A DNA stretch of 64,000 nt from a virus (lineage: Duplodnaviria > Caudoviricetes), in the IMG/VR virus record IMGVR_UViG_3300028615_000023, positions 554 through 64,553 of that record; one strand, given 5' to 3'. Shown here piece by piece: positions 6,619 to 26,087 of this stretch. Under the pieces are notes generated by a model. The model saw only the letters and a program-made list of their open reading frames with translations. It did no database searches and was not told where the DNA came from. Made by a program: the position numbers and the translations under genes. The first letter of the stretch is position 1. Every line of letters begins with the position of its first letter.

Positions 6619-7248
6619 CTATTCAAAATCTGTTTGACGCCATACACCATCAGTCTTGATCAGATAACGACCGTATGAACTCGTTACTGAATACTTAACA
6701 AGATTTTCCTCCATTATTAACAGATATTTTCTTATGGTTGATCGAGGTAGATCCAGAGCTATCTGAATCGTATTTTCCTCGTCAGTAATCTTATTACTAA
6801 TCCACCTATAGGTAGCTGCTTTGATCAGATATATAGCACGTTCAGGACCTACCAACATTACTGCTATGTTGATTATTAAGTCCATAGTTTCGACTGCACG
6901 GTAATCGCTGAAGATAGCTGAGGAAGGCATGCCGATGAGTTCTTCAGCATTGACAGTAGTAGAATTAGCTCCACGCTTCTTATTAGTTAACGCTGAACGA
7001 AGTCGATATATTACAGAATTTTCTCCAGTCCTGTATGCTAACATACATGCTTGATTATAACTCTTGTGACGGTAGCGGTAGAGGGCAATCCACATATTAA
7101 CAGCTACATCATTCTCCAAATCTTCGGTAGGTATATGAAGTATGTACGCTGATCTAGCTATGTACGAATGCAATAGCTTCATACAATAAATTAATATTTC
7201 TTCTCGTTTCTTTCTTACTAATATCTTTGGCCTCTTCTTTTTTACCAT
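6619..7248 (-). CDS. putative phage sigma-factor-like transcription regulator
   Basis: Region-2-like EDLENDVAVNMWIALYRY...YRTGENSVIYRLR and a C-terminal HTH-like IALDLPRSTIRKY. Confidence 0.55.
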   Translation of the reverse strand: MVKKKRPKILVRKKREEILIYCMKLLHSYIARSAYILHIPTEDLENDVAVNMWIALYRYRHKSYNQACMLAYRTGENSVIYRLRSALTNKKRGANSTTVNAEELIGMPSSAIFSDYRAVETMDLIINIAVMLVGPERAIYLIKAATYRWISNKITDEENTIQIALDLPRSTIRKYLLIMEENLVKYSVTSSYGRYLIKTDGVWRQTDFE

Positions 7249-7688
7249 ACAATATCATCTCCGGACCTTGCTCGTTTTCTTCGTTCAGTAATTTTTCGTT
7301 TACTATGAAACGTTCTTGTTAACTTACGCCACTGAGGACATTTACAACCACCGACGTTACACTTAGTTGCTATTGAAGCAGTAGAACCAACATGGTCAGC
7401 ATATACATGACTGCAATCTGAACAAGGGAAATCTCCATAAGGATTTATGTACATATCACAATTGCATGTTACGCAATCGACATATAAATTACCTTCGAAT
7501 ATATGAGTATGTCCACACGTAACACACAATGGTCCGATTTCTCTTCTTAAGTTTCTTACCTTTCTAACTCTTTTTTTCATCCTAGGTGTATCCTTTTTAA
7601 GTTCTCTTATTAACTTAAATTCGTTCTCTAGGCTAAACTCTAGAGGGTAGGAAAGCTTAGCCATATCAGTAACATACACAATTGGCAT
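7242..7688 (-). CDS. Cys-rich zinc-binding protein
   Basis: Two CxxCxH...CxxCxC-like units. Confidence 0.55.
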   Translation of the reverse strand: MPIVYVTDMAKLSYPLEFSLENEFKLIRELKKDTPRMKKRVRKVRNLRREIGPLCVTCGHTHIFEGNLYVDCVTCNCDMYINPYGDFPCSDCSHVYADHVGSTASIATKCNVGGCKCPQWRKLTRTFHSKRKITERRKRARSGDDIVW

Positions 7689-7716
7689 ATCATTTGCAGA
7701 ATCAGTTACTTTTTTC

Positions 7717-8103
7717 TTAGCTATATATGTTACCTTCTGACTTAATGACTTTCTTACATCTTATGCAGTGTCTATGAAGTTCTCGCTTCTTACATAAACA
7801 TTCATTAAGCGAGGGCGCATGGCCCTCGCTTGAACAACCTCGATTACTTCTTATGATACCGTGCCGCATATCGCTCTGCCATATCCATTTATTAACTATC
7901 CGTTTATCTCCCATCTCGTCGATCATAAGAACTGTTTGCTTATCAGTTCTCAATGCCTTGATTTTTCTTTTTGTACTTTCATCCCAATACCATTTATTAA
8001 GAATTACTTTTGGAAGCTTAGTAACTTCATGACCTAACATTTTCATTGAATGCTTCAACTGTATTTCACGGGCATACTCCTCTATCCGTTTTACTATATT
8101 CAT
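7717..8103 (-). CDS. hypothetical protein with C-terminal Cys/His cluster
   Basis: ORF track; CLC...HCIRC. Confidence 0.55.
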   Translation of the reverse strand: MNIVKRIEEYAREIQLKHSMKMLGHEVTKLPKVILNKWYWDESTKRKIKALRTDKQTVLMIDEMGDKRIVNKWIWQSDMRHGIIRSNRGCSSEGHAPSLNECLCKKRELHRHCIRCKKVIKSEGNIYS

Positions 8104-8104
8104 T

Positions 8105-8431
8105 TTAGTACCTTGCTCTTTTGAATATATTCTCTTTTTCTTTTTTCAATGTTTTAAGATATGTATCCGCATCATTCCCAAAACCTAACCAGTCTGCAAC
8201 ACTTAAGAGAGCTTTCCAAGATATAGAAGTACTGCCACTATTATCAAAAGCAACATAACCTCCATGAGTAAAACTAATTTTTGCGCCGCGATCACGCGCG
8301 ACGTTTCCAGCCGGTCATAAATCTATCTCTCCATTCTTCCTACGTCTACCCCAATACTCACCACTTCCGAAATAAGTTGCTGTACGTGCTAGTTCTTTTT
8401 CTTTTTCAGTAAGATGTGTAATACCAACCAT
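8105..8431 (-). CDS. 108-aa protein with in-frame UGA at codon 39 (candidate selenoprotein or readthrough)
   Basis: GGAGG RBS; frame stays open for 69 codons after TGA 8315-8317; hairpin starts after an 11-nt spacer; the ORF exactly fills the intergenic gap. Confidence 0.6.
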
Positions 8432-8443
8432 TTCTTTTACCTC

Positions 8444-8905
8444 CTAAAAATAGTAATTAACTTGACTCCGTGTGATCTTATCTACAGCAAGTGTTCTTAG
8501 TTTTTCAGTAATAGAGTAATCACTCGTTGCTACATTCTTTTCACCTGGAATAAGTTTGAACCCGTAAACGGTTCTTAGCCTTCTCCAAATAAGTTTACGA
8601 TCTTCTCTAGAAATACAATATTCTGGTTTCTTAAAACCAGAATTCTCTAGTTTTCTGAATGCGCCTTTGAGTGCAAGCTTTCTCTGAATGATATGATTAG
8701 GACCGAACATATTGAATGCTTTTACAGTATGCGTTGCTATAGCCAATAGATTTTTAGTTTCTTGCTCCTCAATTCTAACGCTAGCTGTAGTAAATAGACA
8801 AGGTTCATTAACTTTACGGCCCCACGGTGGAACAAACAAACTCTCGCCGGTATCATAGTTGAAGCCAATAACAGCAACTCTCTTGTTATCAATCTTGATT
8901 CTCAT
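8444..8905 (-). CDS. hypothetical protein
   Basis: Start moved to MRIKIDNK after an AAGGAG RBS. Confidence 0.6.
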   Translation of the reverse strand: MRIKIDNKRVAVIGFNYDTGESLFVPPWGRKVNEPCLFTTASVRIEEQETKNLLAIATHTVKAFNMFGPNHIIQRKLALKGAFRKLENSGFKKPEYCISREDRKLIWRRLRTVYGFKLIPGEKNVATSDYSITEKLRTLAVDKITRSQVNYYF

Positions 8906-9035
8906 TATTAGTCTCCTTGACTTTATAAACACCAATCTTATGACTACTACATACGCCACAGAACTTAGGTTTCTTATACCACGTATGTGAGTACCTATTG
9001 TTACATTCAAAACAATAGACTAAATATGTCTTCAT
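8889..9035 (-). CDS. 48-aa zinc-ribbon microprotein
   Basis: Own translation MKTYLVYCFECNNRY...KFCGVCSSHKIGV; GGAGG RBS. Confidence 0.6.
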   Translation of the reverse strand: MKTYLVYCFECNNRYSHTWYKKPKFCGVCSSHKIGVYKVKETNNENQD

Positions 9036-9044
9036 TCAACCTCC

Positions 9045-9320
9045 TCACTTGTAAAGATCAAACTCGCGACACATACATTTACTTTCGTCTCCCATACAGC
9101 ATTCCATCCTTTTCATTCCTGATTCACGTTGATCGAACTCAGTACGACTATCACACATAACAAGTGTCTCCAGATTTATTCCCTTCTTAAGTAACTGTTT
9201 CTTAATTTCCCCGATAGCCGCATCGGCCTCAGCATCGGTTCCATACTTAATATCTACAAACACCTTATCATCTTTAGTGCTTAGTACTACTTTCGGCTTC
9301 GGCCTTGTCTTGTGCATCAT
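9045..9320 (-). CDS. hypothetical protein
   Basis: ORF track; RBS present. Confidence 0.55.
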   Translation of the reverse strand: MMHKTRPKPKVVLSTKDDKVFVDIKYGTDAEADAAIGEIKKQLLKKGINLETLVMCDSRTEFDQRESGMKRMECCMGDESKCMCREFDLYK

Positions 9321-9729
9321 GTACTCCCTTCATAGCTCTGAGTATTTCCTGCCTCTTCTTAAATTCCTCTATACGTTTCTTTGATTCATCAGCCGAAGTA
9401 TATAAGAAATTTGTTATGAGATAGGATGTTGCTCCTCCTATATAAAGATCAAAGAAAGAAATCAATGTTATGCATTGAGCAACTTGTATCAAGGCTAATT
9501 TATGTTTATCAAGAGATCCATTAATAAGTGATATTAATAAACCTATACCTACAAGAACGCTTGCAAGTAAAGTTATTATTGTCCATACAATGTAAAGTCC
9601 CATAACATTAGGCAGTGAGTTTAAAATCTCCATGCTAAATATATATAGGGCATAAGATGTACAGAAGCTTACCTGTACCATAGTTATAAAAAGGTATAAT
9701 AATACCTTAAGCAGAAACAGTATTGTCAT
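9274..9729 (-). CDS. multi-pass membrane protein
   Basis: About three hydrophobic segments followed by a charged tail. Confidence 0.6.
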   Translation of the reverse strand: MTILFLLKVLLYLFITMVQVSFCTSYALYIFSMEILNSLPNVMGLYIVWTIITLLASVLVGIGLLISLINGSLDKHKLALIQVAQCITLISFFDLYIGGATSYLITNFLYTSADESKKRIEEFKKRQEILRAMKGVHDAQDKAEAESSTKH

Positions 9730-25724: not shown

Positions 25725-26087
25725 TCAAACACTTTTTCTACTTTTCACTTCTCCGTTAATGCAAATACGGCTATGATAATCCTTCAATAAAGCCACTTCA
25801 CTAGGTGTTAGTATACGACATTCACTAGGATGCCATGCTACTTCATGATGAAGCTTCTTATCTTTTAGACCATACGTTCCTACTCCCCGTACCATACATA
25901 AACAATGCAACTTAACCGGCAAACCATAATCTTCTATCTCACCATGGTCCAAGAATTCTACCTTACTAATCGGAATAACTATTCCGAAAGAGTGAGCCAT
26001 TCAAGCAAATCCATCTTTAAACTCACTCTTTCTACGTAATACATAACGGCCAACGTATTTCTTAAATGTGCTCTCACGTATTGCCAT
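25725..26087 (-). CDS. 120-aa protein with in-frame UGA at codon 29 (candidate selenoprotein or readthrough)
   Basis: ATG 26087 in a repeat/RBS unit; TGA 26001-26003 is in frame with ORF 25725-26000; hairpin at 25970-25987. Confidence 0.5.

Follow-up and report, generated by a model that had tools for sequence, protein, structure and literature searches.

We describe here a gene with an in-frame UGA codon, followed closely by an RNA hairpin, on a 64,000-nucleotide stretch of viral DNA that we refer to as the window. The window is the 64.5-kb IMG/VR virus record IMGVR_UViG_3300028615_000023 minus its first 553 bases, and the completeness of the record is estimated at 64%. Its guanine-plus-cytosine (G+C) content is about 39%, with 30% G+C at third codon positions, and every gene lies on the minus strand. 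Because these genes encode, among others, a tape measure, a J-like tail fibre, helicases, and a family A polymerase, we take the window to come from a tailed phage. The polymerase is 27% identical to that of SPO1-like Bacillus phages, which is too distant to allow inference of the host. The gene with which we are concerned runs from 8431 to 8105 on the minus strand (Table 1), and its translation is MVGITHLTEKEKELARTATYFGSGEYWGRRRKNGEIDL, then the TGA (8317-8315), then PAGNVARDRGAKISF...KRARY, closed by TAA (8107-8105).

Table 1. Features of the UGA-containing gene, in window coordinates and in 5' to 3' order of the coding strand
Feature	Position	Strand	Basis and remarks
Shine-Dalgarno sequence AGGAGG	8440..8445	-	Read directly; 8 nucleotides (nt) 5' of the ATG; overlaps the stop codon of the upstream gene 8444..9010
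Whole gene, 108 sense codons (UGA counted) plus TAA	8105..8431	-	Unnamed phage protein family of about 100 amino acids (aa); coding score
N-terminal 38 codons (P0002)	8318..8431	-	Sole part reported by gene callers; open reading frame list, database match
In-frame UGA, proposed selenocysteine codon, residue 39	8315..8317	-	Followed by C (UGAC) and a family-invariant Pro; second assembly identical; TGA at the equivalent column in 6 other loci
C-terminal 69 codons	8108..8314	-	Reachable only via the UGA; first in-frame start is codon 56
SECIS-like hairpin CGUCGCG-CGUGAU-CGCGGCG	8284..8303	-	+12 to +31 after the UGA; arms on Val-Ala and Arg-Gly codons
True stop TAA	8105..8107	-	1 nt before the ATG of the next gene at 8103

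A preliminary description of this DNA had placed a hidden frame here, preceded by a ribosome-binding site, holding an in-frame TGA, and ending in TAA just before the next ATG. Read directly, AGGAGG (8445-8440) is separated by an 8-nt spacer from the ATG (8431-8429), the TGA is the sole break in the 108 codons, and the TAA lies 1 nt before the following ATG, all as had been claimed. On a codon-usage log-odds scale trained on 43 long open reading frames (ORFs) of the window, the 69 codons 3' of the TGA score 0.33, compared with 0.375 +/- 0.13 for genuine 69-codon pieces and an off-frame maximum of -0.06. The bias toward T-ending codons reported after the TGA was also recovered; of these 69 third positions, 31 are T, 20 A, 9 G, and 9 C. 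Since no ATG, GTG, or TTG occurs in frame before codon 56, this coding part can be translated only by reading the TGA. A search of public runs for the stretch found one DNA run, probably the source, and no RNA run. A second assembly made from that run, which speaks to assembler error and not to minority variants, gave a 12.3-kb contig (word depth, 30.6) identical to the window over positions 7700 to 9100, the TGA included. The UGA at 8317-8315 consists of real letters and is not an assembly slip.

To place the protein in a family, the read-through translation was compared by HMMER with 1.84 billion representatives (expectation value [E] <= 0.001). There were 26 matches, among them the window's own 38-aa stub (P0002), and 18 of them are full-length relatives of 92 to 150 aa whose alignment extends from residue 7 to about residue 108, straight across the TGA; none of the 18 stops there. 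The preliminary description had held that Cys aligned to the UGA would support selenocysteine (Sec) and that Trp would point to mutation or read-through. Cys is the commonest residue at this column (9 of 18), but the answer is not a clean one, with Ser in three relatives, Gly in three, and Trp, Met, and Thr in one each. Around it, Leu7, Glu11, Pro40 (directly after the UGA), and Arg48 are invariant in a 25-row alignment (A8), and the motifs WLGF and IF.RA.Y are conserved further downstream. Four short relatives (P0008, P0021, P0022, and P0026; 51 to 77 aa) have their first residue immediately past the UGA column, as at a Leu/TTG position within the hairpin loop. Judging from these starts, each is probably a C-terminal half called from another gene that a UGA splits, in which case there would be more Sec-form members than counted here. 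Three other matches (P0006, P0015, and P0023) were left out of the alignment as repeat proteins, with PPC domains and the like, that match through repeated short motifs. A search with profile A1 returned five proteins only. None of the 25 members matched a Pfam family below an E value of 0.045, one of the 25 touched phrog_23520 (E = 0.0095), and among isolated phages neither blastn with positions 7700 to 9100 nor tblastn with the read-through protein gave a match.

Four of the six residues that relatives carry at the Sec column (Cys, Trp, Gly, and Ser, but not Met or Thr) are one base change away from UGA. At the level of residues, such a set would be consistent with Sec codons having been lost repeatedly where the host lacks the machinery.

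The same UGA recurs in diverged loci. Scans with peptide patterns recovered two loci, L003 from a virus and L004 from a metagenome, each with an in-frame TGA at the equivalent column (...HL-TGA-PAGIVAQLRG... in L003 and ...SQ-TGA-PAMRVAVSRG... in L004). In viral contigs, patterns from P0001 alone, from P0008 alone, or from the Cys-form alignment A5 gave nothing, and a scan with A7 found L003 again and nothing else. A DNA pattern with the TGA fixed (TGA-Pro-Ala-x2-Val-Ala-x2-Arg-Gly), scanned over IMG/VR, returned 47 stretches, in which the family profile clearly matched the L003 contig (at least 83 bits), L014 (83 bits), L031 (58 bits), and L034 (33 bits). The match of L015 was weak (11 bits), although its N-terminal MLTEEEIQ is also found in L004 and its C-terminal ALGY...AC.D.P.EVL in L034. 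A further stretch, L042 (12 bits), is without the N-terminal motif and was not counted as a family member. As a control for fixing the TGA, a pattern with the third base open (TGN) and an extra Phe was scanned; it gave 15 stretches, whose sole three family members all have TGA, with no TGY and no TGG among them. With a TGY version there were at least 114 stretches, and no clear family member among those listed (the best reached 18.7 bits, in two pieces).

In total, six further viral or metagenome loci (L003, L004, L014, L015, L031, and L034), which are 27 to 44% identical to the window protein and have a G+C fraction of 0.50 to 0.68, keep TGA at this column; the contigs of all seven UGA genes span 39 to 68% G+C. 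After the UGA the frame is open to the conserved C-terminus in every one of the seven, and the UGA is followed by C in every one. Because TGA stands at one column in loci so diverged, each with an open frame beyond it, neither independent nonsense mutations nor a pseudogene can account for it. From these comparisons, the UGA appears to be decoded and kept by selection.

The hairpin was likewise found as the preliminary description had given it. An 11-nt spacer (CCGGCUGGAAA) leads from the TGA to the 5' arm CGUCGCG (8303-8297), the loop CGUGAU (8296-8291), and the 3' arm CGCGGCG (8290-8284), with G and U of the loop at +20/+21 after the UGA. One of the seven pairs is U-G and specific to the coding strand, since the opposite strand would give A-C, and RNAfold yields the same 7-bp stem (8303-8284). 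Bacterial selenocysteine insertion sequence (SECIS) elements have been modeled, in a 2026 review of the prokaryotic selenoproteome, as an apical loop of 3 to 9 nt on an upper stem of 4 to 16 bp, 16 to 37 nt from UGA to loop, with a minimum free energy of -7.5 kcal/mol or lower; one of the first two loop nucleotides is a G, and the next nucleotide is mostly G or U (PMC13188914). We applied this model in a stricter form that admits perfect stems only. The window hairpin conforms to it (-9.7 kcal/mol; spacing, 18; loop, CGUGAU), as do those of L003 (-13.9 kcal/mol; AGUU), L014 (-11.5 kcal/mol; GGUU), L031 (-11.5 kcal/mol; AGUU), and L034 (-11.5 kcal/mol; GGGC), with the loop 18 to 19 nt after the UGA in these genes. 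All seven sequences can be laid out in a common register, with pairs from 12-31 to 19-24 after the UGA; of its 8 pairs, 8 form in L003, 7 each in the window, L014, L031, and L034, 6 in L004, and 5 in L015. Conservation of the hairpin among homologues thus holds for four of the six loci, at the same distance, and in L004 and L015 the element is present in a weakened form. As background, the model is satisfied after 21 of 1,588 other TGA triplets on the minus strand of the window and 7 of 950 on the plus strand.

The protein sequence dictates two of the pairs, through its Val and Gly codons, and the remainder need particular synonymous codons. The preliminary description had remarked that this stretch is GC-rich in an AT-rich genome, and the window stem does draw on the codons GTC, GCG, CGC, and GGC, which make up 5.6%, 13.2%, 5.5%, and 12.9% of their synonymous sets. 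The 23 codons after the UGA were redrawn 5,000 times according to the codon usage of the locus in question, and the observed hairpin strength was attained in a share of 0.0016 of re-codings for the window, 0.0002 for L003, 0.0044 for L014, and 0.017 for L031. The window and three relatives show a clear constraint at the RNA level; in the three others it is weak or lacking. The hairpin signal lies in position and codon choice, not in bulk stability. A 30-codon ORF at 8203-8295 (minus strand), in frame +1 relative to the gene, starts at a GTG in the hairpin loop. Its predicted peptide (MIAAQKLVLLMEVMLLLIIVAVLLYLGKLS) is very hydrophobic, and the ORF is probably an artefact of reading T-rich codons out of frame.

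Elsewhere in these genomes, UGA is an ordinary stop. TGA is the gene's own terminator in five of the six other UGA genes (L003, L004, L031, L034, and L015), and it ends 16 of the 82 minus-strand ORFs of at least 80 aa in the window, where ORFs of that length under table 11 cover 55.9 of 64 kb. Twelve TGAs of the minus strand separate two open stretches, and only the one at 8317-8315 is followed by a hairpin that conforms to the SECIS model. ARAGORN found no tRNA in the window and no tRNA with anticodon UCA in four other whole viral records or in L015, and neither selB nor a tRNA-Sec above the Rfam cutoff was found in five viral records, one of which is rated 100% complete. Because TGA stops translation elsewhere, and because no suppressor tRNA, tRNA-Sec, or selB was found, the recoding is local to one codon and must use host factors. 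In the viral records holding L034 and L014, ARAGORN also reported two odd tRNA-like genes (L183, 17841-17915, and L179, 16098-16190) with "anticodons" of 2 and 4 nt; these are either false calls or unusual tRNAs, and neither reads UGA normally.

A second in-frame TGA in the window (26003-26001, within 25725-26087 on the minus strand) links ORFs of 28 and 91 codons. It is directly followed by ATG and resembles an ordinary stop-start junction. A 7-bp hairpin (UCGGAAU-AGUU-AUUCCGA) lies 13 nt after it, with an energy of -6.7 kcal/mol, just short of the SECIS threshold, and its AGUU loop is that of the L003 and L031 elements. No relatives of the 25725-26087 gene were found.

The gene product is predicted to be an alpha/beta protein of about 100 aa. 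The confident AlphaFold2 model made from the 25-row alignment (mean predicted local distance difference test score [pLDDT], 93.7; predicted template modeling score [pTM], 0.87) contains a helix (9-16), two strands (28-30 and 36-38), a helix (40-47), a strand (59-61), and two helices (65-81 and 88-105), and residue 39 follows strand 36-38 and directly precedes the N-terminus of helix 40-47. Since the proteins of the window, L003, L004, and L014 contain no Cys at all, Sec would be their lone reactive residue; from its position in the model, we would guess at a putative nucleophilic, redox, or metal/thiol-binding site. Foldseek found no structure match at E <= 0.001 in PDB or BFVD, and a profile search of PDB found none either. 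The best hit of a wide VIA search (Z = 4.1), to tRNA-synthetase anticodon-binding domains, is not convincing, and the Cys-form relative P0003 drew from the ESM Atlas only unnamed viral clusters under 0.9. The neighbor gene of the L003 homologue is unrelated.

Taken together, we consider it likely that the gene is a phage selenoprotein gene of bacterial type, with Sec inserted by host machinery; the Sec residue itself and the binding of SelB are inferred. We favor this explanation because relatives carry Cys where the gene has its UGA, the UGA recurs at the same codon in diverged orthologues, and a hairpin of SECIS type stands at the proper distance from it. Together, these features make up the standard computational signature of a bacterial selenoprotein gene (PMC13188914). 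Under this scheme, host ribosomes would read the UGA as Sec wherever SelA, SelB, SelD, and tRNA-Sec are present, the hairpin acting as an in-ORF SECIS that would bring the SelB-GTP-Sec-tRNA(Sec) complex to the A site. Which SECIS elements a SelB recognizes varies with the lineage. Where Sec insertion failed, release factor 2 would terminate translation and leave a 38-residue peptide, so that the full-length output would presumably depend on the selenium supply of the host. The proposal in the preliminary description, Sec by way of host SelB and tRNA-Sec, therefore stands as the best-supported reading of these sequences and not as a demonstrated fact.

We also lean, with somewhat less assurance, toward a broader view, in which these genes form a genuine phage selenoprotein family of small single-Sec proteins with an unmatched fold, spread through unrelated tailed phages (39 to 68% G+C) that hijack host SelB by means of an in-ORF SECIS. 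The gene, which lies in the replication-gene region, would then yield its full-length product only in hosts with an active Sec system and selenium, and otherwise the 38-residue peptide; the UGA would serve as a built-in sensor of host type and state.

Several observations weigh against selenocysteine. The column is not strictly Cys, and because half of the full-length relatives (9 of 18) do without Cys there, the residue is dispensable in half of the family; on this alignment, a Cys or Sec would seem to tune the protein rather than define it. Of the seven UGA genes, L004 and L015 fall outside the strict SECIS model (the best hairpin of L004 reaches -6.5 kcal/mol, and L015 has none), and the re-coding shares are unremarkable in L034 (0.075), L004 (0.078), and L015 (0.44). 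The stem is conserved without covarying. Phages of high G+C obtain much of it from their preferred codons, as 16 to 34% of the re-codings of L014 and L034 conform to the model, and dinucleotide shuffles of the full 71-nt stretch fold just as stably (z = 0.05). The hairpin comparison covers UGA-form genes alone. The SECIS of E. coli fdhF starts 11 nt after its UGA, places GU at +20/+21, and has a bulged U in the stem; the phage element shares the spacing and the GU, but its stem has no bulged U and is not of the fdhF type. Two pattern scans of genome contigs found no copy of the gene. Finally, no SECIS family of Rfam matched positions 7000 to 9500 up to an E value of 10, although bacterial SECIS elements are described as too diverse for a missing Rfam match to decide the matter (PMC13188914).

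The chief rival is programmed read-through, which we regard as rather unlikely. Here, a near-cognate tRNA (Trp or Cys) would read a leaky UGA-C while the hairpin slows or blocks release factor 2, giving the 38-aa peptide and some full-length protein without any need for selenium. UGAC is regarded as the weakest termination signal in bacteria, and it is the context found in all seven genes. Both candidate residues occur at the column (Trp in 1 and Cys in 9 of the 18 relatives), so that either would be tolerated, and L004 and L015 have a UGA without a model-conforming SECIS. What read-through leaves unexplained is the long retention of a stop codon, with no drift to TGY or TGG, at a position that functions with Cys. 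We know of no downstream hairpin that stimulates read-through in bacteria. Moreover, a hairpin with G in the first loop positions, 18 to 19 nt from the UGA, is a specific signature of SelB-dependent recoding, and Sec/Cys pairing is the standard criterion for a selenoprotein (PMC13188914).

It is very improbable that the UGA is a genuine regulatory stop, with the 38-aa peptide as sole product and a hairpin that serves mRNA stability or protein binding in an untranslated downstream RNA. Gene callers do report the 38-aa ORF only. Against this stand the full coding signal of the 69 downstream codons, the conservation of that part as protein in all relatives (invariant Pro40 and Arg48; WLGF and IF.RA.Y), and a frame that stays open to the conserved C-terminus in all seven UGA genes. 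The idea that the gene is broken or the sequence wrong, whether a TGY Cys codon recently mutated to a stop or sequencing or assembly erred, hardly deserves credit: TGA is one change from TGT or TGC, and the sequence comes from one run, probably the source, but a second assembler gives the same base at a word depth of 30.6, and identical, independent nonsense mutations with open frames after them in six loci only 27 to 44% identical are not credible. Genome-wide reassignment of UGA in phage or host, to Trp (code 4) or Gly (code 25), can be set aside with the same assurance. Three relatives do have Gly and one has Trp at the column, but these are outweighed by the ORFs that end in TGA in a window densely open under table 11, by the single model-conforming hairpin among the 12 TGAs between open stretches, by TGA as own terminator in five of six relatives, and by the failure of ARAGORN to find a UCA-anticodon tRNA in the window, the four viral records, or L015.

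Downstream of the gene, at 7242-8103 on the minus strand, lie genes for proteins of 128 and 148 aa with many paired Cys motifs (CxxC and CxC runs). Neither matches a Pfam family, and the 148-aa protein has only weak PHROG touches (E >= 0.23); from their motifs, both appear to be small, zinc ribbon-like proteins. Adjoining them is a possible sigma factor-like gene (6619-7248), for which the match to phrog_1740 has an E value of only 0.12.

Selenocysteine insertion has so far been treated as a trait of cellular genomes and of two poxviruses. If selenocysteine is indeed inserted here, phages exploit the recoding machinery of their hosts, and standard phage gene callers systematically truncate such genes, as with the 38-aa stub that is all that had been recorded of this one. 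There would also be a natural, compact SECIS of 20 nt to draw on, seemingly functional in hosts whose G+C differs widely, and the fitness of phages would be linked to the availability of selenium in sediments. The family would also define a new small fold, as predicted, with one reactive residue.

The preliminary description knew of no characterized phage selenoprotein, and we found none in the literature searched, with subscription journals and supplements outside its scope; there, "viral selenoprotein" was used only for eukaryotic viruses. In the accessible text of the 2026 review, the words "phage," "virus," and "viral" are absent (PMC13188914). The poxviruses molluscum contagiosum virus (GPx1-like) and fowlpox virus (GPx4-like) have the sole viral selenoprotein genes named in the part of a recoding review that we consulted (PMC8310308). 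These resemble the phage gene in that a virus-encoded Sec protein relies on the insertion machinery of its host, and the fowlpox SECIS is also described as lying inside the coding region (PMC8310308). However, they belong to eukaryotic viruses, use a eukaryotic SECIS, and are captured cellular glutathione peroxidases, whereas the phage element would be a SECIS of bacterial type in a gene for which no cellular counterpart was found. Phages that reassign stop codons, as with code 15 in crAss-like phages, likewise continue genes through a stop codon, TAG or TGA being recoded genome-wide (PMC9523058). There, many genes are affected and suppressor tRNAs are usual, whereas here a single codon of a single gene is concerned, TGA terminates five of the relatives, and no suppressor tRNA was found.

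The closest likeness is to bacterial selenoprotein genes whose in-ORF SECIS is read by SelB, with E. coli fdhF as the prototype. As in these, the UGA lies inside a conserved ORF and is replaced by Cys in relatives, the hairpin follows directly downstream within the coding sequence with G, mostly GU, in the first two loop positions, the loop begins 18 to 19 nt after the UGA, the energy is below -7.5 kcal/mol, and TGA is a normal stop elsewhere. The phage gene differs in residing on virus genomes without sel genes, in belonging to a family without a name, and in having a stem that is short (7 to 8 bp), perfect, and conserved across 39 to 68% G+C rather than covarying. The proposed mechanism is of a known kind; what is new is its home in a phage, the protein family, and the compact, conserved SECIS.

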